From the NCBI GenBank assembly GCA_905178155.1, contig CAJINV010000004.1:2378228-2442227 (forward strand): a stretch of 64,000 nucleotides of DNA, given 5' to 3'. Positions 152 through 63,900 of this stretch are shown here, piece by piece. This DNA comes from Amoebophrya sp. A120 (Eukaryota > Protista > Dinoflagellata). The position numbers were made by a program, and so were the translations under genes. Position 1 is the first letter of the stretch. Every line of letters starts with the position of its first letter. The notes below the pieces were generated by a model, which saw only the letters and a list, made by a program, of their open reading frames with translations, had not been told where the DNA came from and ran no database searches.

Positions 152-2995
152 GACCACGCGTCCGCGACGAAATCGTCCGCGACCCCGAACCTGACCCCCT
201 CGCTTCCCTTTGAGGCGATGCAGGAGAAGCAGACAAATTTGCAAACGCAGATGTTGCTGCAGCAGCAGATGCTGGCCAACATGCGGAATATTCTCCTCCT
301 CCAGCAGTTCAAGGACCGCCGACGGCTGAAAACGACGGACAAGCCGGAGTGGTGGGAGGAACTGGACCGGGAGAGCGTGGAGAAAAACCCCTTCGCCATC
401 CGACCGCTCGAATATGACAGTGCACAACTCCCCCTCCCTCTCATTTGTCATGCAAAACCCCAAATCCAAGTGCGTCCCTGTGGCACTAAGTGCATCACAG
501 ATTCCGGAAGCCCAAACAGTATTACACTAGGCGCATGAGTTTGTCATGAGCAGGCTCCACGTGGTGTGGTGTTTGTATTGCTGTTCATGCGATACAAATG
601 AGGGGGAGGGATAGTTGTGCACTCTCATATCGAAGCCAGCGCCCAGCAGGTGAAGGACGTTGCCAGCGTGTTGCGGAGAGTTGTCGAGGAACAGGAAAAT
701 CAAAATACCCATCAAAAGGGAAATAATAAGCAAATAACCTCGGCTACAACTTCCAAGTCCGTGCGCGGCGGGGGTGGAGCGGCTAGTACAACAGCGAACA
801 AGAAGCAGATTGTTCTTCAACAGCAGCAAATAAACGCCATGACCAGCCCGGCGTCCACGGCAAAGCGGTCCAAAGCCGCGTACTCCAGTCGCATGAGTAG
901 CAAGGGGACCAACAGCAGCAGCATCTACAGCGGTGGTCAACAGCCGCACGGTAGTGCTGCGGCTCTGGCGAAGATGGTCGTAAACAATCAGCAGCAGAAC
1001 AGCAATAGAGTTGTCGGTGTTAGTACGTCGTCTCCAAAGCCATCGTCTCCAAAGCCTTCCTCCAGAACCGCCACACCACTGTTGGAAAAGCGAGCAGCCA
1101 GAATGATGAAGGAGCTCGGTTGCACTATGGGAGAGCAACAGCAAACAAGGTCCTCGCAGCCGGTAGTTCTTGACAAAGTGCAGTCGCTTCTGGACAAAAC
1201 CATCACGCTGGGCCCGGTACAGGAGGAGGTGGAGATGGTGGAAAACGGCATGGAAACAAGGAGCATGAAAAAATCAAATTATACCGACGCAAACAACAAT
1301 AACAATTTGTTGACGACGCCTGACACCGCCGTCCCGCCGACCTCCTCCACCCTCGGCGGAGCCGGACCAACTACGTCAGCCAACACGACCGCTACACAAA
1401 TCACCGTGACGCAGCAAACCCCGGGGTTGAAAGCCTTTCTCTCCTCCCTCGACGAAGCGATGCAGACCTACTCCACGGAACTGATGCGCGCGGAAAGGAA
1501 CATTGCGAGAGAAGTTGTTGTTGGGAACGGTAGCAGCAGTAGCTTGCTGCAAACGGTGGAGCCGAGAGCAGGTGCCGGAGCAGAACAAGCGGCTTTGGAT
1601 CACCAGTATCTGCAAAACACTAGCAACCTGTCTTCCAACTTGGATCTCTTGGAACTGCAGTCGTCGCAATTCTCATCGGCGCAAAACAGCGGCGCGGGAA
1701 CAGGGTCGGGAGCCGGGGTAGCAGCTCCGGGGGCAATTGTGATGAACGCCGCAGAAGCTAATGTACTAGAGGAGGATGAAGAACAGGAGGAACTGCAGGA
1801 GCAACTACAGCAGAAAGACGCGATGTACGATGCTGCATGGACGAATTTCTGCTACGGGGGCAATCCAGCTGAAGAAGGCAATGCTTCCCCCTCTTCGCAA
1901 AGCAACACCATTTCCTTCGTCATCAACGTAGACTGCGGTGGTGGTGCAAACGGAACCACCTCAGGAGGAAATCTAAACTCGCCCACGGTGTCCGTCGTCC
2001 CCGGACCAGCAGCGCAGCAGCAGCCGAAAGTTGAGCAGGAGAAAGAAAAGCAACCAGCGTCCACCTCTCCTTGGCAAACGAGCAGCCGGTTCATGCAGCC
2101 CATGGACGACTTCCTGACCCTGCTCGTTCCGAAGACCGAGGTGGCGCGGAAGCTGGACGGCCCGGGGCTGGCGCTGATTATGTCCGACGCGACGGAGAAG
2201 CAGCGGCAAATGAATTCGATGCAGAAACCAGAACCGCAACTCGTGTACGCCAACGCGAACGGAGCGGGACCTGCGAATACCGTCTACGGGGGCCCCACCT
2301 TGCTAGAGCAGACGGCGCTGGATTTGGCGCAAGCGCAGCAAGCCGGCCTGCACCAGCCGTTTTTGTTGCACCAGCCGCCGCAGGTCGGCCTTCCGTCCGT
2401 GAAACCACAACTCATGTTAGCGGAGCCGGCCGGGATGATGATGCAGGGACCACAGCAGGGTGCAACTGTCAGTTCACCTGCTCTTTATTACGGGACAAAC
2501 AATTTGGTGCAAGAACCAGTCGACCAGCAGCTTGCTCAACAACCACAGCAGGTTCTCTTGCAACCACAGCAACAGCCGCTCGTCTTCCAGGACAGTCGAG
2601 GGGTTCGCTACGGCCCGGCGGCTGCACTACCGGCTGGAGGTCTAGCACCGGGGCAACCGCTCGCCTTCGTCCCAGCTGGTGGTGGTGGACCACAACAGTT
2701 TCTCACTCCCGCAGCGGCTGCTCCTGCAGGGTTAGCAACATCATCTCCTGAGCAACTTTTGACACTGTCTGCACCAGTACAACTGCAGCAACAGCCGAAC
2801 ATCAACTACATGTCAGCAGCAGGAGCAGGTACGCAGCCAGTGCTTGGGAGTACCAGCGGTCAGCCGGAACAACAAATGGTCAGCGTGCAGTCGCCGGTCG
2901 CGGCGCCCGCGGCGTTTGGAATGCAGCAGCCGGCAGTGCTCAGTCCGGTTCTGATGGACCCGGGGAATTTGCAGTGGACCATGCTGCAAGCGTGA
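152..2995 (+). CDS. Low-complexity Q/P/A/S-rich protein, 5'-partial (begins upstream of window); one TIR intron (413-629)
   Basis: Pyrimidine-rich acceptor ...tttcacAG at 151; exon 152-412 is in frame with ORF 218; removing 413-629 plus one TCGAA joins RPLE|ASAQQVKD to ORF 617-2995. No recognisable domain. Confidence 0.75.
413..629. mobile_element. TIR intron (introner), singleton family, 217 bp
   Basis: Left end TATGACAGTGCACAACT..CCCTC, right end reverse complement TATGAGAGTGCACAACT..CCCTC; 5-bp direct repeat TCGAA on both sides; removal restores frame. Confidence 0.9.
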
Positions 2996-10039: not shown

Positions 10040-13000
10040 ATGCGCCGGTCCGCATCGGCCGGGCGCGTGTCGCCTTTTTTGCGGCGGTCCGGATCCGTTA
10101 CCGGCGACACACAAAGCACAGCCACCACAGCCACAACGTTGGCAGGAAACAAAAGGCCACCGCCGCAGCAAGAGTCGCCCTCCAAAATTATTCGGAAAGG
10201 CGTTCTCTTGGAAGAGACCAAGGCCGACGGGAGTGTGCGTGTCCGATGGAAGCCCAGCACTAGCAGTTCCTCTACCCGAGCAGCAGGTGGCAGTGCTTCA
10301 ACGACTAGAAACAAAAGTTTCTCGTCCGGGGTCAATACGACGACCAACAGGCCCGGAACAACTTACAACAAACCCAGCCCAGTACAACTACTATCCTCCG
10401 CACCAGCCGCCTCGGCCAATGCCAACATGCGGGTGGACGAAATTCTGGCCGATTTATTTCCAACGCCGAGCGGCCAGCCGAGCCGCGCGTCCTCCAGTAC
10501 TAGCTCAGCAACATCTTCGAAGCCGGGCCCGGTACGGGGCACGGCTGGTGCAGCGGCAGTGGTCCTCGAACAGTTTTCTGCGGACCCGAACTCCTTGCTG
10601 AAAGAGGTGCTGGAGCAGGACCCGAGCACGCTGCGGCTCAGCCTCTTGCGGAACCGCCGACATGCTTCGGCCGATAAAAATCGGGGAACGACCCACCTAA
10701 ACGACAGGTCGGCAAGCCGACAGGAGCCGTCACCGATCGTGAACAAAGAACAAACCCCACCGTCCCCGGTCGCGTCGAGTGAAGGGTCGAAGGCAAGCAG
10801 CTCGACGTCGAAGAAGCTCCGGCTGTCGCTGAGTTTGGACCAGATGAAGACGAATTCGAAAGAAAGCATAAGTCTTGATGCTCGCAATCCACCGCCCATG
10901 GAAGCTGCGTCGAAAGAAGTTCATCTCAAGAACACAGCGACCGGCTCTACTAGTACTTTATTGCCCAAAAGCGCGGACACCACCATGGATACGATGACGC
11001 CGTTGACTTCGACCACGTCGCGGCGGTACTACGTGCAGGCCGACGGATTTTCGTCGCAGGCGAGCAGCCCGGGGACCGGGCGGATTCGCGCTGAATCTAC
11101 TTACGGGGGCGTGGGGGAGTTGCCTGCGCAGAAGTTCTTGTCAACTTCGTCTGGTAAAATAAATCAGACCGCTGTAACTTCGTCCTCGTCGCGCGCGAGC
11201 AGCCGTGGGAGGGGAAATCTTCAAAGCTCCTCTCCACTGGATACTAACACGAACAAGGTTGGTGCTGGCGCCGTGATCGCCGGGAATAATCCTTCGTCTT
11301 CCAGCACGGCAGGCGGTGGTCCTTTTTTTCAGCCACAATCCCGTGCTGGTCGGGGAGATTTTACGAGGACGAGCAGTAAAGAAAGTCAGAGTCAGCCCGA
11401 AATTGATGACAGTTCCGCCATGGAGCTCGGCTCCCTCGTGGAGCGTTCCGACCTGGCACGGAGCTTTTTCAACTGGCGGTTTCAGTTATGCAATGCAAAA
11501 GGAAAAGTATTGTTATTGTACTAGTAGTAATTGCAATACAAAATGGCTCAGCATTACAAATTTAAATTTGTAATGCGGGTTTCCCTAAGCACCTAGATTT
11601 GTAATGTATAACTGCAATTACTACGAGTGCGATACTTTTGCAGAGGATATCAGTTGTTGCAGAAGCGGTTTGACGACACCCACGTGGAGCAGCAGCACGG
11701 GCTGCTGGTCGCCGCGAAGTTTCTGAAGGACAGTCGGCGAAAAGAGCAAAGATTTCTCCTCGAGAAGGCCTTTTTGCAGTGGGCACGGACGGCGGCGACC
11801 AGTTTGGACCAGCGGGCTCTCGCCGCAGAAATCAAGGCGCAGTGCTTGGAAGACTTCACGATGCGAGAGGCTGGGCTGCGGGACGCGTTGCGGAACCACG
11901 TGCGGGAGAAGATGGAGATGTTGGTGGATAGTAGTTGCAACGGCGCTGCAGGAGGTAGGCCGGGCTCTTCATCTTTATCTTCGTCGGCGATGGTACTGAG
12001 AAAGATGGCGTTCTTCAGTTGGAAAATGACCGCGGCAGAGGGGATCGCGCTGCGGGCGAAGGCTGCTGCAGGTGAGCTAGTTTGATTTGGTTTCTCTTGT
12101 ACAACAATAGGAATAGGATCTGTTTCATAATCAACTGCAACTCCACGACCAGACTCTTCTTCACTTCTGCGTCCTTGTGGGTGTTGTCGTGGAGGATCTG
12201 CACGCAGTAGTTTGGAGGTTTTTCAAGATTTTTCGGTGAGTTCTTTGTCGTGCGCAGAATTCTTGATTTCGTTTTGGATTTCGACAAGTGCCCCAAGAAT
12301 TTGCGTTTGACATTGACCCCGATAGTACCAGGCATTTCACATGGATCGACATGTACTTACGCGCCAACTTTCTTCAGATGCCGCCAAGCAAGAGGAAGCT
12401 TTGACCGACGCTCCGGCGCTCGAAGCGCTCGCAACCCTGCAACGACAGGAGGAAGACCTCCACGGGCAAGAACAAACGCGCCGCACCCTTTTACACGACC
12501 GCAGGAAGGAGCGGAAACTTGCCGAGATCGTCAAGGCGGCGGACGAGGAAAATATTAAAACTGGAGAAGGCGGCTCGTCGTTTTCCAGATCTTTTAGTTC
12601 TTCGAAAGGCACGTCGAACAGTAGTAGAGCGGGCACTCCCACCGAGGACTACGGGAATGCATCAAATTCTGTTCCTACTTTGAAGCAGCAGATCAACGCG
12701 AAGCAGCTGCAACTGGAGCAGGAGGTGCTCCAGCACAAACTCGCGGACACAGGAGAGGAGAAGTTGAAGCTGGCGAAGCAAGATGTGCTGCAGAAGTCGG
12801 AAGAACAGGAGCTGCTGCTCTCCCAGAAAAACCAGGAGGTGGGCTCGCTGCTGCAGAAGGTCGGCGACCTGCAGCAGCAGATCGTCGACATGGGGAATTG
12901 GATAAACCACGGCAGTGGGATCATGATGAAAACAAATGAGGACGACACCGAGGAGACTGAAGAATCCAGGCAAGCGAGTTTGCAGCGACTGCAGCACGCG

Positions 13001-16000
13001 GAGGAAGATTTGGCGAGGTATCGGGAGCAGTGGGAAGAGAGTGTCTGTGCGAAGGAGATGCTGGAGCAGAGTTTGCATTCGAAGCAAGAGGAAATTTCTC
13101 TGCTTGAACAGAAAATCGAGGTGCTCACGGACGGCAGAAAAAACGACAAGGAGAAGCTCCGGAAAGCACAACTTTTGGATAACGATCGCAAAAGAACGAT
13201 TGAAAAGTTGAAGGAGGCGGCTCTGTCGGACAACCAGTTGAAGGAAGAAAAGGCGAAGCTGGCCGAGGAACGCGAGGCACTGGAGCGGAAAAAGTATTAA
13301 CTTTTGTGCCAGGGCGAATTGGTGACACTTAGTCCGTTTTCAGTCGCTTTACAAAAATTATGAGAAGAAATTTCTTGAAGAAAGATGCAGAAGCTCAGAT
13401 ACCGCAATAGATTACTTATGCAGTGTATTGGGTACTTTTTTCTTCGGGGTAGAAGAACACAATTTTCTCTACAACTTCAACAGGCAGCAACTGCTGAACC
13501 AGGGTAAGGCCCTGGAGCAGGTGCAGAAGCGGCTCGATGACTGCACAACAGACCTGGAGGAACAGAAGAAGGCCTTCGTCGAGAAGGAAAAGCTCCGGCT
13601 GTTCGAAGCTTTCGGTGACGCCAGAGCGAAGGCCGGGGATCTCGGCTGGCGATGGAAAAGCGTGCGATGTACTAAGTTGGGAATTCGAACATTGTTTTTT
13701 CTATTGTAGAACGAGTTTTTCAAATTACTTAGTTTTTCTTTTGCGTTTAAGTGCTTTGTCAAGTCCTGCAGGTGCAGCACTACTAACCTCACTGTCGAAA
13801 TAAGTAATTTACAAAAATCTCGCTCAGTGCGTCTCCAGTGCCTGCATGCGTGGCACCACTTGACCAAACAACTACGGCATGAGAAGCACCAGCGCGAACT
13901 CCAGGACGAATTCGATGCCTGCACCAAGGAATGGGATGACCAGGTGGCCGAGAAGCTGCGGGAGCAGAAGGCCGCGTTTGAGAAGCAACGGGAGCAGGAC
14001 CGAGCCAGAACGCAGGGCAGGATCGACGAACTGCACAAGGAAGTGGCGGAGAGTATATTACTACAACCGTTTTAGTTTTTTGCTACTATTAAGAATCTCA
14101 CACAAACACAATGTGCTGTTGTGCTCGCGGCTCTAGCACTTGCAGCACCAGGAGCATGATGCTACTTACTAGATGGCAGGAAGGACTACGATTTCGATTT
14201 GTGAAGTGAATCTTCTATGCATTGAAACTGTACATGTACAACAGGTCGCCGCGTGTTTTCGGAGAACACCGAACTGCGGGGCTCCACCGTGGCTGCCCGG
14301 ACGTCGCTTTCCATTTTCAAGGACCTGATGAAGCAGCAAATCGGGAATTTCGAGGAGAAAACGGGGGAAAAAATCAGAACCATAGACCAGAAAACAAAAA
14401 ACCTCTTTGCCGTAGTCCAGACGTTACTGATTAAGCAGAAGGAGCTGCAGGTCCAGAAATTCTCCAATCCATCCGAAATCGAGCTGGGCGACTTGTACCG
14501 CGAATTGAAAATGACGTACGGGAGATTACTGTCCGCCCACGCGGCAAAAAAAAGGGAACTGAATCTGTGCAAACAGGAGCTGAAACGGCAGACGAAGAGG
14601 AAGGAGCAAAACAAGTCTGGTGCTGGTACTAGAATTCTGTCGCGGAGCGCTTCCACCTCCGGCTTGGGGTTGGGCGGCTCGTCGTGTTCGGGGCACGAAT
14701 ATCAAAGTGAAAAATCCCCCCTCCCCATATCGGAAACGGAAGATGCGCGAATTTGTGATGCTGTATTTGAGTACACAAATCGTAATCGACTTGTATTGCT
14801 AGAAGGCCAAGAGACGAAGCTGCGGCCTAAATTGCAGGCAATCTGTCATGCTGTTTCCCACTTCCAGTTGCCTCCTGTCATCCTGGAGCTGCAGGGCTTT
14901 CCCAGGCTAGACAGCGCTACAGTCTGCATCTTTTGCCTTCTAGCATCACAAAGCTGATTTGTTGCCACAAATCTGCATCACAGATTTCCGTTTTGATATG
15001 GGGAGGGGGCATTTTTCATGGTAATAACGAAAAGAGCGGAATGGACACACCGATGAACCTGTCCTGCAGTATATGCAGGAAAAAAACTGTGTAAGTGTAA
15101 CTCTGCAATGCAGAACATGCAACAGAGTTACGCCTGTCATGCCAGAGAGCCACGAAGTTCTCTTTTCATGTGTGTGTTCCCTTACGAGCCACGCATGACA
15201 GGTTTTCTCTGACATGTAGACCAAACTTGTGATGCTGTCGGCCAAGGAAAGTTACACTAACACAGTTTTTTTCTTGGATACAGTAGCAGCGCGAGTTTTG
15301 CGCAGTACGGAACCAGCGGCGCAAGGATCCAAAGCTTGGAGCAACAGGTATATACATATAGCTTGCTGTGGTTGTTAGTTTTTGTAATACAGCATCTCTG
15401 ATTTTGCTACGTCTTGTCTATGTTTTTTCTGAGCGCCTATGCAGCCGAATCTTATGAAACCGACACTGATCATATAAACGATGCTAACATTACATTTATC
15501 ACCTACTCCACCAGGTCGCCACTCTGCAGCTCGAGCGCGGGAAATCGGTTCGCGAGTCGACGGAATTGGAATCGAAACTTACTACTTTGACCTCTGAAAT
15601 CGAGGAGCAAAAGCGGATTTTGAGGAAGCAAAACCGGGTGGTGTGGAAGGTGCGCGAGAATGCGTGGAAGCTGGATACCTTCACGAAGTGGCGAAGGTTG
15701 TGCTGCAGCAGTAGGGACGTGCAGGTGAAGAGCTCTCCCCTGCTGGGGAAAAATACAAGACAAGGCAATCCTCCACTCCCCGATGACGAAAACGAGGAGG
15801 ATGCAGTGCTGCTAGAAGAAGATCCTGACAACGGAACAATCGCGGTCCATCAGCAGCATCAAGAAGACCCGGGGACTGTGTCTACTAAAGACACGGCGGC
15901 AACGTCTACCTCTAAGGAAATAATGAATTCGTACAACAATCCGACAGCCAGCAGTGCCGGAGTGAGCAGCTGCGAAGAAACAACTTCGATGGCATCAGAA

Positions 16001-35027: not shown

Positions 35028-35349
35028 TTGCGCGTCTTCTTTTTGTGTTTCTTGTGTTGGGCTCTGGGGCCAAAAGAAACACTTCGACAGCGCCACTCCC
35101 TATCGCCGCCTGGCGTCCCATGGCCATGGTAGTGGACATTTTGAGCGCGTTTCAGAAGCCACCCAGTTGCTAGGCCGATTTCACTCCGAAAGTTGTGTCA
35201 GAATCGCTTCTCCGCTATTTTTCTCCACCTCGTCACGCGAGGATTCCGGAGGGGCGCTTCTGCAAGCAGCGCCAGGTGATAAAATTGTCGCGGCCAGGAA
35301 AGCGAAAGAGCAGGATGAAAGACCCCAAAAGGATTCCCTCTCACTTGTG

Positions 35350-44524: not shown

Positions 44525-47500
44525 ATGCCTCGGAATTCTACTGCCTCCAGGGCTGCTCCAACAAATGCAAACATAACTCCTACCACCAGTACCACAAATA
44601 ATTCTTCGCGAAGTAGGCCGGCACGTGAGGACCAAGAACTACATGATCCGCAAAGCGCGACGAAAATTCTGCGCCTGCTCGAGGAGGATCATGACCCCAC
44701 GGCAGATGCGATTCCCACCTTATCCCACGAAAAAAGTGTTTCACTGTAAGGATTTTGCAAGTTTTGCATCACAAGTTTGCTCTGCATGACAGCGAAAATT
44801 TGCAATGCGCGACTTCCAAGGGAAAACACCGCTAAAAAGCCACTGTCTTGCATGTCTAGCAAAACAAACAGAAACACTTCTGAGATACATTTTCTGCATT
44901 ACAAGCTTACAGTGAAACAGGTTTTTCTTGCGATACGCCTACCACGACCAGAACGGCCTACTGTCGCCGACCAGCGGCGGGGTAGTAGTTTCATCGCTGC
45001 ACAGAACAAATTTGGATTTTCTAGAGGAGGAGGAGGAAGATGAAGCAGAACAACACCTACAACACCTACACCTACTTCCAAGGAGCAGCAATAAAGCCAC
45101 GACAACTCGACATCTTCGGGGTGGAGTAGATGGCGTGCAAAATGGTCAAATGGGACGCGGGCGAGGAGATACAGGCTGTAGTACTGAGACGGGCGGGACG
45201 AGTTTTTATCAAGTGGACGCTACTACAACGCCGACGAGGGTCCAGTGGACGCAGGTGGATGTTGAGGTCATCGCAAGACACCACTACAACTACCACTGTC
45301 AGTTGCAAGATACAACCACGGGCGCAGCTGGCTGTATTCAAGAAAATAACGGTTATTTTGATACTTCCACTTCATCGACGCGGTTCTACTCACAGTCTGC
45401 GTATACTACCGATCGCGACAGCAGTTCTTGTACCTTTTCATCTGCGGCCACTCCTGCCGTGGGGCGCGGTTGTATTCAAAATGTTTCGCTTTCGCTTTCA
45501 TCATATTCGCGTGAAAGTCTATTGATCTTTAGCAGGTAGATTGCGGTGTACTACTGACTGGCTCCACCCAGGATATAAGAGTAGAAGTCATGGACGCTTA
45601 TGAGCACCTCCGCGTGTTTCTTCTACGTACTCATTTTGTTCTTCCTGCTGGTGCTTCATGATGCATTTCTCAAATGACCGCCTGGATGAAAGTACACCTA
45701 CTACAAACAGCGTCATCTGTCGCAAGCACGAGCAGCACCCCTGGAGGCGGTCTAGGGGTGAGGAACGTCCTCACCGGTGGCGCGACGACCGTGCATGGTC
45801 CTTCCAGATTCCTGCCGTCGTCGACCTCCGCTTTCGATTTTGCCGCCGAGGACCGGCCGTTGGACTGTTTGCCCCTTTGTCAGCTGGAAAGTGCGCTTCT
45901 CACCACCACGAGAAAGCTGTTTCCCAAATTGCCCCATTTTGTCATTACTGGCGTAGCGGGGGCCGGAAAGCGGTTCGTGCTGCATGAACAAGAGGGGCTT
46001 GTTATCCTATTTAAAAACGTCCCCACCCCATAGTTGTAATGCAAATCTGCATGCTGAAAATGTTTCTCATGCGGAGCCCCATGAGAAGCATTTTCTAATC
46101 GTGTTTTGAAATTTGTCATGCTCCAATCAGCATGGTATGCTAGATCTGTGATGCTGCTGAGCAAGCTCAAACAGCACTACACTACGAATCCAAATTTGTC
46201 ATGCAAAACAGCCAAAACTTGTGGATTTGTCTAACCGATTCCCCAACTTGACTATGGTGTGGGGACGTTTTTACTCAGGATACTTGTTCCGTCAACAAAC
46301 AACAACAATAATAATAAAACTGCTGCGTCCTCTACTACTTCTCACTGTTATTTCCCCTCGTCGGCTACGGCTAGTAGTAGTTCTACCACTGCTAGTGCTC
46401 AACAAACGACCCAAACAAGTGGGCCGCGGACGACGGCGCACAGGATGAATAACAAGAAGACTACTCTAGCATCAGCCGCGCAAAGCAACAACTGTAGTAC
46501 CAAGAACATCCACGTGCCCTTCTCCGTTTTCCTGTCTCTCGTGAAGGAGGCGGAGGCGCTGTGCTTTGCCTTTGTTGACAACTCTGAGGTGGACGATGAT
46601 TATCGAAGCGGTTGTTCGGCACAAGGGCGAGAGGAGGAGGACAGAGCAACTCCTGTGAAGATGAAGATGAAAGTGCAGCTTCCGAGTATCAATCAAGCGG
46701 TGATGCAAACGAAGATGTTGCACGGCGGTGGTACAACTTTTGGTCTCCAGGAGGAGCAGCTGGAGGTGCAGCACCAATCTAATACCTTTGTCTCCCCGGA
46801 CCGAAATTATAAACAACTTCAACAATCTATGGATGTGTCAGGATTGAAATCGACAAAATCGAAAAATTTGTGATGCATAAAATGCAGGGCACTGAAGGCC
46901 TGTATTGGGGAGTAGGCAAATGAGGCCGATTGTAAGCCTGTTTAGGGGTATACAATGTGCTGCCAGAGTAGCATTACAGACGGAGTCTTCTTTGCCCAAA
47001 CAGCATGACAGACTGGATTTGGGTACTCCCGAAATTTGTCATGCGCCACTTGGAAACTGAGGCTCCAACTGACATCGATTTGGTGCATCATCGATTTTGT
47101 CAATTTCGATTCTGACACGTCCATACAATCAAGTGGTCGGCACAGACTTGCACGAGGAGATAGTCTCCAACACAGCGGGAAAACGACACCCAATTTGTTG
47201 TCATCTTCATCCTCGTGTGCAGTGTAAAAGTGTAGAGTATAATCCGACAGCACTAGGAGTGATTGCATTTGCATCACAAATGTGCTCTTCAGCATGACAA
47301 AGGGAGCACTTTGTCAATATGGTGCATTGCCTAAGAAACCAGCTTCGTCACATGCCGGATTCTTGCAAGTTACTACAACTGCTGCGATTTGTCTTGCTTT
47401 GCACAGGATACGCTGAAGAAGCATCTAATCTCCAGCACGAGCAGTACGCCGGGGCGTCGGCGCGGGCTCACGAGTGGGCCGCAGCCCAGATCCTGGATGT

Positions 47501-49971
47501 CCTCTACAGCATCCTCGGGCGCAGCGACGCCGTTCGATGTTGGTCTTCTAGGAGCGGCCCCGACGAATTTCACTACCAGTACGGACGGTGTCTTCCCGGT
47601 GTCGTCCAGTGGTGCAACGCAGCAACTGTTCGCGCGAACGGTAATATCTTCGTCAACAGCAGGAACATTCATCCACCAGAACAAATCGGTTCGCAGTACT
47701 GGATTTTTGCACAATTCCGGCCCGGCCTCCGTGTCACCGTCCAAGGAGCGTAGTGGCCGCCCCCGAACAGATGTTAGTATCGAAAGGGACGACGAGGGAA
47801 ACTTCGTCTTCGTCGCGATCATTCTTTCTTTGGCAGCTGGAAATTATGCATGAAAAAGCTGCATGTGCATGGGATGGCTGGTTGTCATGCCGGAGAACGC
47901 GTATATATAGAGAAATACGTAAAAATACCATTTTTTCTGCTGCACAAATGATTTTTTGCAAAATAGATTCATTATTTTTCGATCTCAATTGTGAAGACGA
48001 AGTGTTTATTTCGTTTGATAGTCCGCGGCCTGGTAAACAGTGCGTCCAAGAAGATTCTGGACTCTTGTACGTCTGGCGGAGGACCAGGACGTGTTGGCTC
48101 TGTAGTCTCCTCGTCTTCCGGTTCCTCGTCTAAAAACACCACTGCCTCGTGCACGCCGCCGGTTGGATATCGCAAGAAAAAGCTGTTGCACTGTAAACTT
48201 GTGATGCATAAAATGGAACACAGAAGTATTTGTCTATGCTACACATGCAAAAAAGTGGATTTTTAGCTGTGTTTCCCTTAGGAAGCCTGCGTGGCAAATG
48301 TTCTCTGTCATGTAGAACGAACTTGTGATGCAAAACGACCTGCAAAATCCTTACAGTGAAACACTTTTGTCGTACGATATTGGAACATCATCGAGTACTA
48401 TGGTTGTGACGGACCACCGGCCGCCAGTGCCAGCAGTACCAACATCTTCTTACACGACCCCCGCTGAAAATAATTGCACCTCATCCACCCGCCCCTACCC
48501 GGCGACACTGTTGCAGCAGCAAGATCTTCATCTCGTACGAGAAAGATACGACCAGCAGACTGCGATGAACTACACGGAAGATTTCGAGCTTGCTGCAACA
48601 ACTGGGTACATGCTCGATGAAACAGAAACAGCAGCAGCCGCAACGAAAAGCCAGCTGAATTTCTGTGGGCGGCTGGTGGTGTCGCGTATCGTACGAAAAA
48701 AGTGTTTCACTGTAAGGATTTTGCAAGTTGTGCATCACAAGTTCGCTACACATATACAAAGAAAACTTGCCATGCAAGGAGCCTAAGGGAAAACACCGCT
48801 GAAAATCCACTGTCTTGCATGTGTAGCAAGACAAACATCGCCGTGATGCATTTTCTGCATTGCAGACTTACAGTGAAACAGTTTTTTCTTGCGATATCGC
48901 GCCACCTCCCGTCAATGGAGGCCCTCAGGGGGCACAAGCAGTCGAAGCCTCGTATGGGGTTCTCAAACGTTACTTTCTCAACTGTTACATGATTTGTCAT
49001 GCAAAATGACCATGACCCGCCAGACGATCAAGCTGCTGCGCATGACAAATTCTGAGAGGGCTAAACAGCACTATAATCCGCACCAAACCTGTAATGCAAG
49101 ACGCGCAAGGTTCTCCCTCTCAACTGTGCTAGTCGTGCATTACAAATTCATGTCGGTTTAGCATTACAAATTCGGTGGTGGCCTGAGCATCTGCGGAAAG
49201 GTGCCCTATGGGTTGCGTTTGTGGTTTCGGTCGGTTTAGCATTACAAATTCATGTAACAGTTGGGAATGTAACGTTTGAGAACGCCATACCTCGGGAGCT
49301 TTCCCCGGGTGATAGTAACAGTAGATGACTGTGATGTCGATAACTTGAAGACGCAAAGATACTTTTGAGAATTCACTTTCCTCAACATGTACAAAGAATT
49401 TGAAGTAGACTTCTAAAATTGGTGACCCGACGAGTAGGACTACATGATAATGCTTCGAGATTTTCAATATACGTGACACTCATTTTTTCTTTTCATCCTG
49501 TACGATAGATTCAACTATGTCGGTTTTTGATTTTGATTTATGCACAACATGTAGGACCAGGCGGAGGCCTGCAGCCCACCAGGAGCACGAGGTGCCCGAT
49601 AGATCTCTTTGCAGGAGGAAGAGCCACAGCAGCAGGTTGCCTTTGACAAGAATTTCAGACGCGCGGTGGTCACGTTCCTACTTTTGATTTTGTACGATGA
49701 AGATGTTGCCTTGGCTCAGCACTACCACTATGTGGACAAAAATTCTGTCGCACGCATATGTGAAAGAGGATATTCTTCTCGACACACCAAAGCCAAAGCG
49801 CTCCCGCTACTTCCCCCGTGGCCTACTTCACGACTGCGGAGACAACTTTTGCACCGCGTCTTCGCACCGAAGAAAAATCATTCGTGTTTAAAGACGTGTC
49901 TGTGTCATGGTTTTTCTGAAGCTGGCATCATCATTCAGGCAAAATCAAATATCGGTGAAAATCAAAAGTAA
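44525..49971 (+). CDS. Hypothetical P-loop protein, possibly a highly divergent RFC small-subunit/AAA+; 8 TIR introns; 3' end uncertain
   Basis: Frame is restored across 8 elements and a probable GT-AG intron (~45469-45710). LPHFVITGVAGAGKR resembles the RFC Walker A region; NFRRAVV in ORF 49609 resembles sensor-2, but its linkage to upstream exons was not resolved. Confidence 0.5.
44721..44935. mobile_element. TIR intron, family F, 215 bp
   Basis: TATCCCACGAAAAAAGTGTTTCACTGTAAG...CTTACAGTGAAACAGGTTTTTCTTGCGATA; direct repeat CACCT/CGCCT; join AIPT|YHDQNG. Confidence 0.9.
46003..46282. mobile_element. TIR intron, family D, 280 bp
   Basis: TATCCTATTTAAAAACGTCCCCAC...GTGGGGACGTTTTTACTCAGGATA; direct repeat CTTGT; join EGLV|PSTNNN. 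Confidence 0.93.
46828..47125. mobile_element. TIR intron, family G, 298 bp
   Basis: TATGGATGTGTCAGGATTGAAATCGACAAAATC...GATTTTGTCAATTTCGATTCTGACACGTCCATA; direct repeat CAATC; join LQQS|SGRHRL. Confidence 0.92.
47216..47410. mobile_element. Degenerate TIR intron, 195 bp
   Basis: TGTGCAGTGTAAAAG...CTTTGCACAGGATA; internal GCATCACAA and GCATGACAA; flanks CCTCG/CGCTG (2/5); removal of element plus 5 nt skips an in-frame stop and joins SSSS|KKHLISS. Confidence 0.65.
47778..48020. mobile_element. Degenerate TIR intron, 243 bp
   Basis: TATCGAAA..ACTTCGTCTTC...GAAGACGAAGT..TTCGTTTGATA; flanks GTTAG/GTCCG (3/5); join TDVS|GLVNSA. Confidence 0.7.
48168..48379. mobile_element. TIR intron, family F, 212 bp; opposite orientation to 44721 and 48687
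   Basis: TATCGCAAGAAAAAGCTGTTGCACTGTAA...TTACAGTGAAACACTTTTGTCGTACGATA; direct repeat TTGGA; join PPVG|TSSSTM. Confidence 0.93.
48687..48896. mobile_element. TIR intron, family F, 210 bp
   Basis: TATCGTACGAAAAAAGTGTTTCACTGTAAG...CTTACAGTGAAACAGTTTTTTCTTGCGATA; direct repeat TCGCG; join VVSR|HLPSME. Confidence 0.93.
48953..49289. mobile_element. TIR intron, singleton family, 337 bp
   Basis: TATGGGGTTCTCAAACGTTACTTTCTCAACTGTTACATGA...TCATGTAACAGTTGGGAATGTAACGTTTGAGAACGCCATA; direct repeat CCTCG; join SKPR|ELSPG. Confidence 0.92.
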
Positions 49972-50826: not shown

Positions 50827-53800
50827 ATGGGAGGTAATAAATTATGGATTGCAAAAGTGTCTGGGTCTGGAAAGTTGGAACTTGTAATGCTGGTCTTGCA
50901 TTTCTGTGAAATCTGTATTGCATGACCAACAAAAGTGGTAGCCTCCCATGTCATACAAAAACGCAGCTTGTCATGCGGAGTTCGTATGAGAAAGCGTACT
51001 GCAAACTTGTCATGCTTTCCTGCATAAGGTAGTGACTTCCTCTTGCACACGACCCAGACATTTTTGCAGTTGATATAAATCCTCGCAGAACAATAACAAT
51101 TTGCCTTCCGGGCGGAACAAGATATCCTCCGTGAAAAACGCCCCAACCTCCCCAATAAAGTTGTCGTGAAAAAAATCTGTAAATCTTCAGGGTAAGCTGA
51201 TCGATTTCTCATCATGTGGCTGCACTAGTGAATCATCAGATTACAATCCTAGTACAACAGGCCCACAGCACGACTTGTCATGCGCAACAGCTAGAGCTTG
51301 TTGCTTTGTGGCGCCCATCTTGACACTGGGATGCTGGGGAGGTTTTCACACAGGATAGAAGATGGCACCAGGCGGGCTTAAGACGATGCTGTGTTTCAGC
51401 TATCAAACAAAAAAAGTTCGTCACGATCTCACTCATGCGCATTTTTGCAATACAAAACTGTCTCCTGTCATGCGTATTAGAAATGCATCACAGTCGAGCT
51501 TATTTCTGCTCGAAGACTCGGATTTCTCTTGTGTGTGTGCCTACAGAACAAGAAGAAGGGAACCTGCAAAGATGCAGGAAAAATTTGTCACGCACCGAAA
51601 CCTGCAAGTTAGTGATAGTGACTACGAACTCCAACTCTTGTCTTTCTATATCAGCGCCGCCACGACTTTTAATGTTATGCCCGGCGCGCACGGGCTTCTG
51701 CGGGTGATGATGGAAACAAAGAAAAAGAAGAGTGCAAGTAGCAACAAATTCGCGGCGGCGCGGGAGAACCAGTATCTGAAAATGCTGGGCGACGTTTCGA
51801 CTTCTGTCCAAGACCTTCGCACGCAACTTTCCCAGCATGCCACGGCTATCGGCAGCATGCAGACGATATGCAACACAAAAACTGTGTGAGTGTAAGTCTG
51901 TGATGCAGAGAATGCAAAACAGTAATATGCTTGTCATTCTGGATGTGCGTCATAGAAGACTACTAACTTTCATACGTGTTTTCACGTACGAGCTGCGCAT
52001 CGCAGGTTTTTTCTGTAATGCACAAGGAATTTGTGATGCTGTTGCTGTTCTTCCTACAAAATTACACTTACACAGTTTTTTTCTTGGATAGTCTAAAGAA
52101 GTGCATCAGCAGAAGCAAATCGACTACTTGACGGGGCTATGCATTGCAAATGTGTCTGGGTCTGGAAGGTTGCAAATTTGTGATGCTGTCTTTGGATTCT
52201 TAGAAAATTTGTGATGCTATTGCTAGGTCATCGATTGCAGGCATCCAGGGTCAAGATTCAAAATATGCATGACAAACCTGGCAATATTCCAGACCCAGAC
52301 ATATTTGCATTTGATACGGGCATTTGAATCAATTGAAGCGCAGCATTGACATATCGCAAGAAAAAACTGTTTCACTGTGAACTTGTGACGCAGGAAATGG
52401 AACACGACACTCTTTGTCTTGCTACACATGCAAGACATAGGATAATTTTCAAGCATATGTTTTCACTTGGAAAGCGCGCATGGCAAAGTTTCGGTGTCAT
52501 GTGTACACAAACTTGCGACGAAGATCTTGTAAAAGAATCACAGTGAAACACGATTTCCCGACGATATTAAGGCCTCGCGTTTGGCGACGCCGAGAAATGC
52601 GCGGCGGAGATCATGAACCCGACGAGCGGAAGCCACTTTGCGGTGTACACCTGGAATCGTGCCCCGCACACCTCTATGGATTGCAAATATGTCTTCTGCG
52701 TCTGGAAGAGTATCAAGTTTGCCTTGCGGTGCAGCTTGTTTTGCATGACCCGGAAGGAGCAAGTCTGGAATGCGAGCCGTAGCGTCTTCACAAGTTTTTG
52801 GAAGGCTCCTCGATGTTGCCTATCCTGTGCATGAGAAATGTCGCCTCGTCCAGGTGACCAAAATTGGGTGGCTTTTGCTACACATGCCATACACATATTT
52901 TTGTTTCCACCTCAAGTAGATGTTGTAACAACATCTAGCGTCAATTTTCACAAACTCAGACTGTTCCAGATTCAGGCACTTTTGCAGTTAATAACGTCCA
53001 GTCCGGAGCCCCTGGAGCCCGGGCTGCCCCTGGAGAAGCGACTGAAAGCAGAGGAGACCAATCTTTGGCACGAGAGATACGACCTTTACCCCGGGGACAC
53101 GAAAACCGTTCGCGCCTTTGACGGGCAGAGTAAACAGTGTGACACGTTTCGGATATTCGTCGTTCGCCAGAACAGCTATCATTTGTAAAAACGTCCCCAC
53201 CCCATAGTCAAGTTGGTAAATCTGCAACACAAATCTCCAAGTTATGGGAGTTTTGCATGACAAGTTTCTATCTGTAGTGTCGTGCTGTTTGGCAAGGGCA
53301 GACGCATGAGAAGGCCAGCTTCTCATCCCGTTTACAGCATTTTTACAAGGTCCAAAACAGGATTGGAAATGCCTCTCATGCAGATCCTCATTACAAAAAC
53401 TAATGTTGCTCTCATTGCGCATTTGCATGACAACTCTGGGGGAGGCAAACGCAAAGGGTGTCGCACTTCTGTTTAGCATGACAACTCTGGGGTGGATACG
53501 TTTTTTCATAGGATAACAGCCGCAACATATTCACGCGCAAGTACAGCGACAAAATGATGCAGCTGGAAAACGGCAAATCCTACGTGATTATGGCGCCCAA
53601 TGAAGTCATGCTCCAGGGTATGGAAGCGTCAGGATGGAAATCGACAAAGTATGGATGAAATAATTTCTCATGCACAAAATCGATAACAGTTTTTAGAGCC
53701 AAACTGTATAGTCGGCACATGACAAATTTTCCCTCCGCCGGAAGCGAATCTGTCACGCTGTTTAGGGCAAGGAGCTCCCCTCTGTCATGCTAGTCAGCAT

Positions 53801-54516
53801 GCAGGCGCAGCCCAATTTTTGACCCTTAGCAGGGCTATGATCTGCCTCCTTTGCATTTTCTGCAATAGAGGCACCCTCTGCGTCGCATTTTATGCATTGC
53901 AAATCATTTTAACTATGGCGATTTCGATTCTGACACGACTCCCATAACGGGCGAAATGGCCCTGCGGCAGCAAACATCGGGAGGAGCCATCACTCCCTCG
54001 ACCGCTGTCCCGTCTACTGTGAGGAAAAATCCCCCCTCCCTATACTGAAAAGGTATATTTCTGAAAATTTGCGATGCTGATTTGTGGCCGCAAATCCTGC
54101 GTCTGCCTCTCTTGCAAGAGGGCAAACTCAGAAACTCTGCCACGATATGCAGGCGATTTGTAATGCTGAAAGGCCTACAGGGCAGACGTCTGCCATGCTA
54201 GGCCCCTACACCAAAGGGCCCCCCCTTAGGCTTACGATCTGCCTGCAGTGCCTTACTGCAACACAAATGTGATTTGTGTACTCAAATACAGCAACACAAA
54301 TTTCGTTTTCGATATGGGGAAGGGGGATTTTTCCTTTTGATACCGTCTGGGAGCGCTTCAGTTGCGTCCGACACGGAAGATGATGCTGCTGCGCCTGATG
54401 CATATCAAGCTCTGCGTGGTGCTACGACTCCATTTGACGATGATCAAATGCCGATGCCGTCTGCTCCGCCGGGTGCTCCAACTCCAATTCCGTCTGGCCC
54501 TCCGGAAAACCGTTAG
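50827..54516 (+). CDS. Hypothetical 329-aa protein split into 11 exons by 10 TIR introns
   Basis: Removing 10 elements plus one 5-mer each (2,700 of 3,690 nt) leaves 990 nt, open from ATG to TAG: MGGNK|SSQNNNNLPSGRNK|MAPGGLKTMLCFS|AATTF...MQT|KEVHQQKQIDYLTG|HLNQLKRSID|SLAFGD...PHTS|SPEPLE...RQNS|RNIF...MLQG|EMALRQ...VPS|GSASV...PPENR. Central coiled-coil-like segment, Pro-rich tail. Confidence 0.82.
50843..51075. mobile_element. TIR intron, family A, 233 bp
   Basis: TATGGATTGCAAAAGTGTCTGGGTC...GACCCAGACATTTTTGCAGTTGATA; direct repeat TAAAT. Confidence 0.9.
51123..51357. mobile_element. TIR intron, family D-like (diverged), 235 bp
   Basis: TATCCTCCGTGAAAAACGCCCCA...TGGGGAGGTTTTCACACAGGATA; direct repeat CAAGA/GAAGA. 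Confidence 0.85.
51401..51650. mobile_element. TIR intron, singleton family, 250 bp; in frame and stop-free
   Basis: TATCAAACAAAAAAAGTTCGTCACGATCTCACT...AGTGATAGTGACTACGAACT..TCTTTCTATA; direct repeat TCAGC; internal TGTCATGC and GCATCACA motifs. Confidence 0.8.
51867..52090. mobile_element. TIR intron, family C, 224 bp
   Basis: TATGCAACACAAAAACTGTGTGAGTGTAA...TTACACTTACACAGTTTTTTTCTTGGATA; flanks GACGA/GTCTA (3/5). Confidence 0.87.
52138..52316. mobile_element. TIR intron, family A, internally deleted, 179 bp
   Basis: TATGCATTGCAAATGTGTCTGGGTCTGGAA...TTCCAGACCCAGACATATTTGCATTTGATA; flanks GGGGC/CGGGC; both ends align to 31801-32062. Confidence 0.9.
52352..52566. mobile_element. TIR intron, family F, 215 bp
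   Basis: TATCGCAAGAAAAAACTGTTTCACTGTG...CACAGTGAAACACGATTTCCCGACGATA; flanks TGACA/TTAAG (2/5), frame still restored. Confidence 0.85.
52675..52993. mobile_element. TIR intron, family A (diverged), 319 bp
   Basis: TATGGATTGCAAATATGTCTTCTGCGTCTGGAA...TTCCAGATTCAGGCACTTTTGCAGTTAATA; flanks ACCTC/ACGTC. Confidence 0.85.
53177..53515. mobile_element. TIR intron, family D, 339 bp (internal 51-bp gain)
   Basis: TATCATTTGTAAAAACGTCCCCACCCC...GGGGTGGATACGTTTTTTCATAGGATA; direct repeat ACAGC; close to 42207-42495. Confidence 0.93.
53619..53946. mobile_element. TIR intron, family G, 328 bp
   Basis: TATGGAAGCGTCAGGATGGAAATCG...CGATTTCGATTCTGACACGACTCCCATA; flanks CAGGG/ACGGG (3/5). Confidence 0.85.
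54015..54342. mobile_element. TIR intron, family B, 328 bp; left terminus diverged (TACTGTG)
   Basis: TACTGTGAGGAAAAATCCCCCCTCCC...GGGGAAGGGGGATTTTTCCTTTTGATA; direct repeat CCGTC. Confidence 0.9.
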
Positions 54517-57715: not shown

Positions 57716-57900
57716 TCCTTCTGTTTTTGCTTCAAATCTTTCCGTTTTAGCATCAAATCCTTCTGCTTTGGCATCAAATCCTTCTGCTTTAGCATCAAAT
57801 CCTTCTGCTTTAGCATCAATTCCTTCTGTTTTAGCATCAATTCCTTCTGTTTTAGCGTCAATTCCTTCTGTTTTAGCATCAATTCCTTCTGTTTTTGCTT
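57716..57900. repeat. 21-bp tandem repeat (~9 copies)
   Basis: Unit TCCTTCTGYTTTAGCATCAAW; reads QKELMLK/QKDLMLK on the minus strand. Confidence 0.92.
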
Positions 57901-60948: not shown

Positions 60949-63900
60949 ATGAACGAGGAGGAGGCTGAGGCCGTGCACGACGATGACACCACGTTTTACG
61001 TCCTCTACGTGGAGACTATTCGCCTCGCCCACCCCGACCCACAGCCACTGAACGCCTGCATCCACTGGTACATCGGGGACGCGTATCAAATGTAAAAGTG
61101 TCTGGGTCTGGAAGAATGCATGTTTGTCATGCTTGTCTGGCATGACTCTTAAATATGTCATGCACGTTACCCAGGAGCTCTGTTTTTCTGTGATGCAGAA
61201 ACGCAGTTTGTCATGCAGAATAGGCAACACCTAGAAGCTCAGAAACTTGTCATGCTGAGCCAGCACTTGTGGCCTCATCATGAGACGCCACCCAGCATCA
61301 CAAGTTTCCAGACCCAGACATATTTGCAGTCCATAACGCGGACTACAGTTCAGTGCCCTTCACCATCCCGGCGAATGCGCAGTGGTACGATCTGAAAAAC
61401 TGCGGTTTTGTTCTGGTGCCCGACGCCGCACTGAAAGAGGACAGCGAAAAGAACAGCCTGACCCTGTCGATCACCAGCTGGGAAGGAGAACACCTGGGCG
61501 TCTTCTTTGGACACTGCGGAGACATCGCCACAAGTATTAAATTATATCACGATCATGTTTACATTTATTCTTTTGCTTCGATAGTTGTAGTTCTAGCTAC
61601 CGTCAAAGCAGTTGTTGGGTTACAAAACGTTCATAGAAGTTACGTCCCGCTGAATAAAAAAATCTTCTCTGCCCATTTTTTATCAGGCGAAACGTTCGAC
61701 AAGCATGACGTCGAGCTTTTGCACGAAGACGGCTCCTTCGCGACCGCCGAACTTCACGCGGCACGCCAGGGCCGTTGGACGCTGAGTGGCGCGAAGCAAA
61801 AGGAATGCGTGTTTGTCGATCCGAGCAACGATGCCCAGGCCAAGCACATCTGGGAGTTCATCGCGCCGGAGCCTACCGCGTCGTGGAAAGGCACAGCCAA
61901 GGCGAAGGGGACGGCTCCACCTGCGGCGGCCGGTGGGGTTGATGCGGGGGAAACTACATCTGCTTCAAAGGCGGACACAAGCAAGATGGTAGAGGAAGGC
62001 CAGAATGCTGGAGCAAGTGGTAGTACCGACGAGAAGAATAAAGCTGAGGCAGGTGGGGCCGCGTCGAGTAGCCGTGGTCCGAGGGTATAATTCAGTCTAT
62101 ATCATCTTGCTTTGTGTTGTGAATGAAGATGAACGCGGTGCAGCAGCTGCAACCTACGGCACACCTTCGAATATTAGAATTAGAAAGAGGAATGATATAA
62201 GTATCGATAACAGGTGCCATCATTCTTGGACGCAGAACGCATATGCAACGCGTGATGATTATCGCAGGCTCAGCACAAATGAATATTTATGAATGCTGAA
62301 AGCTGCAACAAGTTAGTGCTTTGAATAAAATACAAATATACGGAAATCATCATGTGCACGAAAATCAAAATCAAATTCCGTTCGTAAAATAAAACACAGG
62401 ACGCCGATCCGAGCCCGGAAATAAAAGCCAGTAAGGAAAGCGAACAAAAAGGCGCCCCAGGAGACGACACTGCAGCAGCAGAAGATGGAGCTGGTACTCA
62501 CTCGTCTTTGCATACAGTTTTTCCACATGCCGAATCTATTGCAGTGCCGAAGGAGCTTGCGCTAAATCGTTTTTTACGTGCTACGAGTGCAGAAGACGAA
62601 GAGCGTCTTTCACTTTCTATATCTATTTGCTTTTGTGCTCCTTCGATGACATAAATGATTATGAAAAAACCGTAATCACAGACGACCCCGGGAATGCCGA
62701 CCCGAAGGGCGCCTCCACCGCGAAACGCAAAAGCGCCCGCAAAAGGACGTCCGCGAAGGCCGACGCGAGCGACGAGCCTTCGGTACCAGGTAAAGAGGTT
62801 GTAGTAGTTGCCAGCGCAAGCAAAGAAGGAACATCAAGTGCAACTACGTCGCCAGGCAAAAAAACCAAACTCAACGTCGGGAGCAGCAATAAGCAGGCGG
62901 AGCTCACTTCCCTTCCCCCCGGGGAGCAGAGAAACTCTTCGGCAAGTAGTCCGGAGCGGAAAATGAAGACCAACGTGTTCAAACGAGCTGCGCAAAGCGT
63001 GATCGACGCGAACATAGCGACCAGCAGTTCAACGTCTCGGAAAAGTACGAACAAATCGCCCAGAAAATCGAAAAGCAACCGAGACAGCAACACCACTGGA
63101 GGTGAAAACAAGGGAAATAAAGTAGGCGAGTTCCTTCTGGACAAAGGCGTGGAGCAGTTAAATGAGTTCACCAACAAGGTCTACGCGTCCGAAGGCTGCC
63201 GCGCCACGCTGATGCATCCGAGTAATGGGCAGAAGATGCCGGTCAGAATGCGAATTCTTATGAAGAAAACAGGCTTACCCGTCCCCGGGAGTGAGGTCAG
63301 CAACATCGCGGAGGATGCGTATTTGGAGATCGCGAAAGACAGTGTGGACAACAGTAGCAACCCGTTTCTCCAGCCCGCCTTACCCTCTACTGGTGTAGTC
63401 TCCAGCACCGCTGCGAGCGCAGCCCTTCCCTCCGGCCGGTCTCTGAACAAAAACATCCTCCGTTCCGTGAAGCTGTCCGGCATCAAGAACCTGTTTCTCG
63501 GCGCGAATTTATCGCCGTTGACGAAACGGGCCTTGAAACTGACCGAGGAGAAACAGTTGCAGTACCTGCACCCGCTGTGCGTGACCATGCAAATCTCCGA
63601 GGAGTTGGAGTTTCTGACCCTGGAGTTTCTGTACCCGGACCAAGTGCAAGACGTGACCGAGGACGGGTTGAACCTACACACGGAGGAGCTACTCGGGAAC
63701 AAATCCGAGTACCTTCCGCAGTTCATCGAATTGTGTCGCAGCTACTACGCGCCGCCGAGGTACCCCGACGAGCCGCAGACGTATAATTTGCTTTCCAAAC
63801 AGCAGTTTCCCGACGTGAAGAAAGTGTGTGAGGAGGCGGTGGTAAAAGTGGCGCAGAAAAAGGTGAACGACCTGCAGACGCTCCGGAACTCGGTAAACTT

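Follow-up and report, generated by a model that had tools for sequence, protein, structure and literature searches.

We identify 37 short, transposon-like inserts within the coding exons of nine genes in a 64,000-nt stretch of Amoebophrya sp. A120 DNA (contig CAJINV010000004.1, positions 2,378,228–2,442,227, forward strand; hereafter the window). The inserts lack the GT-AG ends of ordinary introns, lie in either orientation, and have to be removed exactly, together with 5 nt of flanking direct repeat, for their host genes to be read correctly. Elements of this kind have been known since 2021, the 5-bp repeat included, and our finding is a rediscovery. We tentatively propose that the paired ends of each element would act as a ruler that places the cuts.

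Results

Exonic inserts with the anatomy of non-autonomous transposons

The elements are 150–339 bp long (first at 413–629, last at 61084–61335; Table 1). They were collected by a blind scan followed by relaxed scans and an end matrix. The blind scan, which required inverted ends and an exact repeat of 5 nt, returned 32 hits, comprising 24 of these elements and 8 other repeats, against 0–1 hits in each of five dinucleotide shuffles. The right end is ATA in all 37; the left end is TAT in 35, TAC in one (54015) and TGT in one (47216), which places TAT at 72 of the 74 ends and TGT at one. In the end matrix, built from 26 elements, TAT occupies positions 1–3 and A is found at positions 11–15 in 44–50 of 52 ends. 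GT-AG ends are present in none of the 37 in any register. A preliminary description made from the sequence had given the same count, length range, TAT...ATA termini with two variant left ends, and absence of GT-AG. It had also assigned terminal inverted repeats (TIRs) and a 5-bp direct repeat to every element, which holds in part: the repeat is perfect in 26 elements but differs at 1–3 positions in 11 (5, 5, 3, 4 and 1 mismatches at repeat positions 1 to 5), and two elements, 47216 and 47778, have weak inverted ends.

Short length, TIRs, a target-site duplication (TSD) of constant length and many copies are the hallmarks of miniature inverted-repeat transposable elements (MITEs), which are non-autonomous TIR DNA transposons, and the elements have all of them, in keeping with their earlier description as transposon-like. 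A Pfam scan recognized no transposase family in 22 intergenic open reading frames (ORFs) of the window, Rfam gave no match in the window, and no viral contig matched the element end.

Two exons match proteins named Amoebophrya sp. A120 at 100% identity, each exon search having returned one protein. The introner elements published for A120 have ends that read TAT, seven variable bases and an A-tract, with direct repeats of 3–5 nt (5 bp in the legend of Fig. S19), a length of about 240 nt, many families and no transposase inside (Farhat 2021, PMC7789003). The window elements likewise have TAT inverted ends with a variable stretch and at least three A, a 5-bp repeat, non-GT-AG ends and repeated families, and we are virtually certain that they are introners of the kind already published for A120. 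The link to Amoebophrya introners drawn in the preliminary description was right.

Terminal positions 4–10 differ among copies whose interiors are 84–96% identical (for example 19994, 21507, 39782 and 61084), and a small set of terminal 10-mers turns up repeatedly among copies, as though ends had been exchanged.

Placement within host genes

All 37 elements lie inside plus-strand coding blocks. We drew the limits of these blocks by hand, and they account for 59% of the DNA outside the elements (P about 3e-9). Because 32 of the 37 contain stops in all three plus-strand frames and 21 would shift the frame (element plus 5 nt not a multiple of three), the elements cannot be read through. The host genes are not pseudogenes: they include transcript-based models and a gene with a conserved A25 orthologue, and RPB1 carries such inserts in a second assembly. 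Ordinary GT-AG introns and elements share genes.

That every element sits in a plus-strand exon and none outside, as the preliminary description had it, is borne out within the window but not in the second assembly (described below). There, an apparent GT-AG intron of Rpb1 contains one element (L028:2075–2314), so that placement is not confined to exons; the flanks of 8 of 205 copies also look non-coding, with about 4 expected from coding DNA alone. The exon bias is strong, not absolute.

Exact removal of element plus 5 nt

Deleting each element with 5 nt gives continuous frames in all nine host genes, for example 2,762 codons across five inserts and 329 residues across ten, as had been claimed. 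A blind frame test on single junctions chose this length for 26 of the 37; the test is weak next to short exons and at the ends of genes, and one left end was then misplaced (at 47845, later set to 47778 from the annotated protein P0002). In four multi-element genes, 4 of 243, 4 of 243, 6 of 729 and 96 of 59,049 combinations of frames stay open. The combination with +5 throughout is listed among the open ones in the first three and reproduces the annotated protein in the fourth.

The annotated A120 protein models P0001 and P0002, built from aligned transcripts (cDNA) according to the published methods, cover 14 junctions. Element plus 5 nt is the only length that fits at all 14, and −1, +2, +8 and +11 are excluded. 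Removal of element plus 2 or plus 8 nt is also ruled out in a gene for an ArfGAP protein, whose exons cover profile positions 2–29 and 31–88. The +5 join there gives a zinc-finger spacing of 16, as in 132 of 133 measurable homologues (150 examined, 17 unmeasurable, one with a spacing of 17); no ArfGAP match is identical to the window exon (best 77%), and this junction rests on homologues. The same applies to a gene for an RCC1-repeat protein, whose A120 model was not among 97 hits. Its +5 join at 39782 yields a 4-residue spacer found in 441 of 451 homologous repeats, and against the A25 protein the +5 joins are gap-free at three of five junctions, with the fourth beside gaps and the fifth in an unaligned stretch. 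Exact removal of element plus 5 nt is needed for correct reading of these genes.

Elements in both orientations

Families were defined from element interiors only. Six multi-copy families (A–F) hold 31 of the 37 elements, and all six occur in both orientations (17 versus 14 copies), even inside one gene (38003 versus 40403; 48168 versus 48687). Among the junctions covered by P0001 and P0002, families D, E and F are represented in both orientations. Since copies of both directions are missing from the annotated proteins, removal cannot depend on a one-stranded internal signal.

An internal motif shared across families

The 8-mer TGTVATGC (V, A, C or G), on either strand, occurs at 107 sites in 9.5 kb of element DNA, in 35 of the 37 elements and in families with unlike ends. 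It is absent from the 54.5 kb outside the elements, where 3–4 sites are expected. Sites cluster 32–33 and 40–44 nt from the element ends and favor neither strand of the gene (224 versus 217 in 150 oriented copies). We consider the motif a putative protein-binding site, more likely acting at the DNA level, in mobilization, than as a splice signal. A literature search with three spellings of the motif brought up two papers, both unrelated as far as their listing shows. An apparent helical phasing of the sites (raw period 10.3 nt, R 0.47, 107 sites) was lost after family copies were collapsed to 58 sites, where 991 of 3,000 random sets were as strong.

The elements in a second assembly

A 30-nt end pattern retrieved at least 131 loci (233,933 nt) from metagenome contigs, of which the 80 listed share one accession prefix. 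These loci and the window have no non-element DNA in common (E<1e-8), and so offer no orthologous empty sites; the counts given here for the second assembly refer to the loci listed. When elements were called without use of the repeat, 177 of 230 proved to have an exact one of 5 nt, and exact repeats of 3, 4, 6 or 7 nt number 0–1 each. TGTVATGC is present in 223 of the 230, occurring 988 times in or beside element-like DNA versus 34 times in 156 kb elsewhere. Of 169 copies with 120-nt flanks, 79 could be framed confidently and 73 of these chose +5 (116 of 139 at the loosest margin). All five multi-copy families are present in both orientations, and GT-AG ends occur in 4 of 114 copies.

Two of these loci, L027 and L028, encode RNA polymerase II Rpb1 with such inserts. 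One insert of 262 nt lies between profile positions 24 and 25. Another, of 972 nt, follows position 78, and its +5 join provides the 20 residues that precede the next scanned exon, at position 99. This longer insert (L027:1501–2472) is a family D member with a normal start of about 220 nt, about 700 nt of other DNA, the far end and a perfect 5-bp repeat, which suggests that removal tolerates large cargo. Inspection by eye of 10 unpaired ends, out of 78 in the second assembly, revealed no recognizable transposase beside them.

Predicted terminal stem and cut register

The element ends are predicted to pair in 34 of the 37 elements, in each orientation. In the predicted stem, positions 4–10 are loosely paired (14–32 of 37) and positions 11–30 more firmly (25–35 of 37); loose pairing at positions 4–10 would leave the ends accessible.

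With r denoting the number of letters of the left repeat copy that are retained, diverged repeats reveal these letters through the annotated residue. The junction at 52352 fits only r=4; 47216 and 47778 require at least 4, 51867 and 53619 at least 2, and 51123 at least 1. All six are compatible with one rule, which places the cuts 1 nt upstream of TAT and 4 nt downstream of ATA. This fixed 1+4 register is a lead rather than a result, as one junction would fix it and five bound it. At 52352, neither base beside the cut is common to both repeat copies; this speaks against joining driven by homology, and also against an artefact of template switching. The nine leading A120 motifs in Table S4 of the published genome study all begin N-T, as r=4 predicts (Farhat 2021, PMC7789003); they are not independent support, because perfect repeats leave placement to the aligner.

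Read at r=4, 35 of the 37 elements begin N-TAT. In 12 ordinary intron gaps, the GT-AG join with the best score starts with GTAT in seven cases (acceptor choices are rough), against a background in which GT is followed by AT in 3.6% of all GT in the window. The N-TAT 5′ end matches this commonest host donor at +2 to +4. As N-TAT is presented by the inverted repeat in both orientations, the match leaves the spliceosome a candidate. The first base of the 3′ exon under r=4 is a purine in 24 of 37.

Donors of the ordinary introns (at 12072, 13294, 14053, 15348, 16169, 61534, 62085 and others) are mostly GTAT, that is, with a preference for U at +4. In other eukaryotes a +4 U donor preference is linked to loss of N6-methyladenosine (m6A) from U6.

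Table 1. Elements and selected host genes in the window (positions in nt; +5, removal of element plus 5 nt)
Feature	Position	Strand or orientation	Family	5-bp repeat	Remarks
Element	413..629		singleton	perfect	
Element	11487..11649	+	A	perfect	
Element	14700..15026	+	B	perfect	
Element	15072..15280	+	C	perfect	
Element	19687..19937	+	D	perfect	
Element	19994..20245	-	D	perfect	interior 95.6% identical to 61084, opposite strand
Element	21507..21758	-	D	perfect	
Element	23354..23664	-	B	perfect	
Element	25441..25702	+	D	perfect	
Element	30745..31027	+	E	perfect	
Element	31121..31415	-	E	perfect	
Element	31801..32062	+	D	4/5	
Element	36442..36591	-	A	perfect	+5 join gap-free against A25 protein P0010
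Element	37625..37876	-	D	perfect	inverted ends 20/20
Element	38003..38271	+	D	4/5	+5 join gap-free against A25 P0010
Element	39782..40033	-	D	perfect	interrupts RCC1 repeat
Element	40403..40670	-	D	perfect	81% identical to 38003, same gene, opposite strand
Element	42207..42495	+	E	perfect	interrupts ArfGAP zinc finger, profile positions 29/31
Element	44721..44935	-	C	4/5	
Element	46003..46282	-	E	perfect	absent (+5) from annotated P0002
Element	46828..47125	+	F	perfect	absent (+5) from P0002
Element	47216..47410		singleton	2/5	left end TGT; P0002 retains at least 4 nt of left copy
Element	47778..48020		singleton	3/5	weak inverted ends; P0002 retains at least 4 nt of left copy
Element	48168..48379	+	C	perfect	
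Element	48687..48896	-	C	perfect	79% identical to 48168, same gene, opposite strand
Element	48953..49289		singleton	perfect	
Element	50843..51075	+	D	perfect	absent (+5) from annotated P0001
Element	51123..51357		singleton	4/5	P0001 retains at least 1 nt of left copy
Element	51401..51650		singleton	perfect	absent (+5) from P0001
Element	51867..52090	+	C	3/5	P0001 retains at least 2 nt of left copy
Element	52138..52316	+	D	4/5	absent (+5) from P0001
Element	52352..52566	+	C	2/5	only 4 nt of left plus 1 nt of right copy agree with P0001
Element	52675..52993	-	D	4/5	absent (+5) from P0001
Element	53177..53515	+	E	perfect	absent (+5) from P0001
Element	53619..53946	-	F	3/5	P0001 retains at least 2 nt of left copy
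Element	54015..54342	-	B	perfect	left end TAC; absent (+5) from P0001
Element	61084..61335	+	D	perfect	same-length GT..AG alternative nearby
Host gene	18119..27760	+			5 elements; frame of 2,762 codons once they are removed; five pieces scanned without a Pfam hit
Host gene	35349..41098 (start approximate)	+			5 elements; RCC1-repeat protein, likely A25 P0010 orthologue
ArfGAP gene	42104..43686	+			1 element and an apparent GT-AG intron
Host gene region	44525..49328 (start approximate)	+			8 elements; GT-AG intron near 45470-45710; partial model P0002
Host gene	50827..54516	+			10 elements; exons 8-70 codons; annotated 329-residue P0001

Other features of the window

All recognized genes are on the plus strand, consistent with the co-oriented gene blocks reported for the A120 genome; one of them, an EAP30/Vps36-family gene at 5888–7708, is a single exon without elements. 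A 13-nt word recurs many times in the non-coding region at 54600–58100, which also contains end-like copies starting with TAT (near 57597, 57625 and 57987) and two tandem arrays, of 40 nt (57116–57392) and 21 nt (57670–57921). Six ORFs of this region gave no convincing Pfam hit; the region may be a larger mobile element. At 55385–55410, non-coding DNA holds a single sequence similar to the right end of family C, with no partner seen.

The GC-rich intergenic block at 32890–35340 has inverted repeats of its own, flanked by 5-nt repeats (33462–33606 and 34649–34858), which are not TAT-ended and lack the 8-mer; at 33750–34370 the block has a short word repeated in a dense array. Very GC-rich intergenic stretches at 3700–5500, 7900–9300 and 55600–56800 contain long ORFs on both strands without a Pfam hit. 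A direct repeat of about 33 nt, seen by eye, occurs in intergenic DNA at about 59200–59235 and again at 60360–60395, 1.16 kb apart.

Discussion

A candidate ruler for insert removal

We propose that a transposase encoded elsewhere would insert the elements into exons, in either direction, with a 5-bp duplication. In RNA, the paired TIRs would then direct cutting to 1 nt upstream and 4 nt downstream of the predicted stem. As 1+4 equals the 5-bp duplication, the exon would be restored exactly. Because both ends carry the same inverted repeat, either orientation would offer the same N-TAT 5′ end, a U-tract near the 3′ end, and the stem, whose inner part would replace the usual donor-acceptor pairing. 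Removal by such a hairpin-guided ruler, most likely through an altered spliceosome, is the account we favor, though we place it a little short of an even chance. The catalyst is its least certain part. An altered spliceosome is our first choice at similarly guarded confidence, and a separate cut-and-ligate activity resembling SOS splicing also has a substantial claim, if one clearly below even. U1 proteins and other spliceosomal proteins are listed for A120 (Farhat 2021, Table S6, PMC7789003), and tunicates, in which the spliceosome has adapted to non-GT/AG ends, offer a precedent for an altered machine (PMC13326754). The preliminary description had instead argued for a dedicated pathway beside the spliceosome, on the ground that GT-AG introns occur in the same genes. 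They do, but co-occurrence does not show that the pathway is separate, and the N-TAT 5′ end matches the GTAT donor.

Several observations weigh against a hairpin ruler operated by the spliceosome. P0001 and P0002 are models built from cDNA, not reads. The upper bound on the register comes from one junction (52352), whose residue could be explained by RNA editing or model error, and 21 diverged repeats in the second assembly place r=5 and r=4 within 0.6 bits of each other (codon likelihood and mutation direction). The TAT match to the host donor is three letters only. Sense-strand folding of the ends is predicted to be poor in three elements (47778, 51401 and 11487). G-U versus A-C pairs in the stems stand at 49:47 in the window and at 139:101 in the second assembly, where copies are non-independent; this is a mixed outcome as regards RNA-level selection on the stem. 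Random first and last intron bases, the lack of AG and a branch-like word without sense-strand bias (74 versus 90 of 150) sit uneasily with a spliceosome. Of the old shared introns, 98.6% are still canonical, indicating that the spliceosome is not generally relaxed, and U1 small nuclear RNA was reported as not detected in A120 (Farhat 2021, PMC7789003).

The equal use of both orientations, the random terminal bases and the absence of a branch-word bias would suit a spliceosome-independent endonuclease and ligase that reads the paired ends of the same elements with the same geometry, a precise relative of the SOS and Euglena systems. We judge this a serious contender that still falls appreciably below an even chance. 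Paired inverted repeats set off SOS splicing, which also acts on scrambled repeats and depends on RTCB (PMC12779559), and Euglena cuts 3 nt before and 5 nt after its paired motif, with the longer spacer likewise 3′ (PMC12501133). However, SOS splicing is described as imprecise and leaves indels, whereas the ten-insert gene needs exact removal; the Euglena CAG...CTG code is absent from the elements; the match of N-TAT to GTAT would be coincidence; and RTCB has no hits in the A120 supplement (Farhat 2021, PMC7789003). A bolder form of this account, to which we incline still less and which we regard as rather doubtful, holds that A120 has precise, genome-wide, spliceosome-independent splicing: an exact, constitutive SOS splicing in which paired TAT...ATA ends in either orientation would set a 1/4-nt ruler, TGTVATGC would be the licence for a protein factor, and tens of thousands of exon insertions would be neutralized.

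Excision from DNA in an expressing stage, as with the internal eliminated sequences of ciliates, would have RNA transcribed from a cleaned template. Transposon anatomy, orientation independence and the strand-symmetric internal motif all fit such a process, yet the elements are in place in two assemblies. We know of no separate germline and somatic nuclei in Amoebophrya, and without them excised copies would be lost in progeny; we consider DNA-level excision improbable. We give just as little credence to the idea that the spliced cDNAs are reverse-transcriptase template-switch artefacts, with proteins made by ribosome hopping or the genes dead. Such artefacts are classically recognized by a hairpin with flanking direct repeats and no splice signals, and neither 'RT-PCR' nor 'template switch' occurs in the main text of the A120 study (Farhat 2021, PMC7789003). 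Against this, the modeled join at 52352 shows identity on neither side of the cut, and those at 47216 and 47778 show at most 1 nt, while frames and conserved spacing are intact across inserts, Rpb1 included. Ribosome hopping requires matched codons, and the meaning of the in-frame codon differs between repeat copies in 5 of the 11 diverged repeats, one of them a stop. Least probable of all is that the ordinary spliceosome uses cryptic GT/AG pairs nearby and leaves or removes a few extra codons. An in-frame GT..AG pair lies within 15 nt in 19 of the 37 elements (two of the same length), and the remaining 18 have none. At the tested junctions, the 14 annotated ones and those of the RCC1 and ArfGAP genes, nearby pairs are not used and only +5 at the repeat fits, which refutes cryptic use there. 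Of the ways in which the preliminary description might have failed, dead host genes are answered in its favor, as are nearby GT/AG junctions where these were tested.

Relation to known systems

The published A120 study counts 29,850 repeated introns and, from RNA-seq, more than 60% of introns as non-canonical; it supports their removal by RNA-seq, leaves the mechanism open, and calls the splice sites variable, with no clear signature (Farhat 2021, PMC7789003). Amoebophrya Kv and AT5 are reported to have mainly GT-AG introns. For the removal of most A120 introns without GT-AG, the window offers a testable rule, N/TAT...ATA-NNNN/ in either orientation. The two candidate machines predict different products, a lariat or ligated ends, and existing RNA-seq can settle the register at diverged duplications across the genome. 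Together with the 8-mer, the cut rule is a simple aid for gene finders annotating these genomes. We did not find orientation independence, the fixed 1+4 register, the GTAT donor likeness or the internal 8-mer in the literature examined, although published figures may show some of these.

Among transposons, the Ginger2/TDD group comprises integrase-type TIR elements, and TDD-4 and TDD-5 make 5-bp duplications, as the elements here have; Ginger termini read TGTNR, in contrast to TAT at nearly all element ends (Bao 2010, PMC2836005). An A120 introner family with LTR (long terminal repeat)-integrase-like homology, without Ginger termini and homology, has been described (Gozashti 2025, PMC12130899). 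Spliceosomal introners of Micromonas, Aureococcus and others resemble the elements as non-autonomous, intron-creating, gene-enriched DNA transposons with TSD and TIRs, but draw their GT/GC and AG from element, duplication or exon, unlike the window elements, none of which has GT-AG (PMC9860276, PMC12130899, PMC11282704).

Euglenid nonconventional introns are, like the elements, a majority class beside GT-AG introns, with paired ends, fixed spacers, a suspected MITE origin and enzymes not identified (Nomura 2025, PMC12501133). Their code, N3-CDG...CH'G-N5-6 followed by a purine, differs from N1-TAT...ATA-N4 with a 5-bp duplication and young repeat families, and the window elements lack the CDG...CH'G paired motif at spacers of 3 and 5–6 nt. 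In SOS splicing, known from C. elegans and human cells and dependent on AKAP17A, CAAP1 and RTCB, DNA transposons with paired inverted ends and non-GU-AG termini are removed from mRNA (Zhao 2025, PMC12779559), and the elements, with pairable ends and non-GU-AG termini, have the features of its substrates. SOS splicing is imprecise, produces indels and serves as a fail-safe for rare insertions (PMC12779559), whereas the removal needed here is exact and routine. If removal in A120 proves spliceosomal, an RNA stem can replace both terminal dinucleotides; if it is spliceosome-independent and exact, A120 would hold a natural, precise counterpart of SOS splicing.

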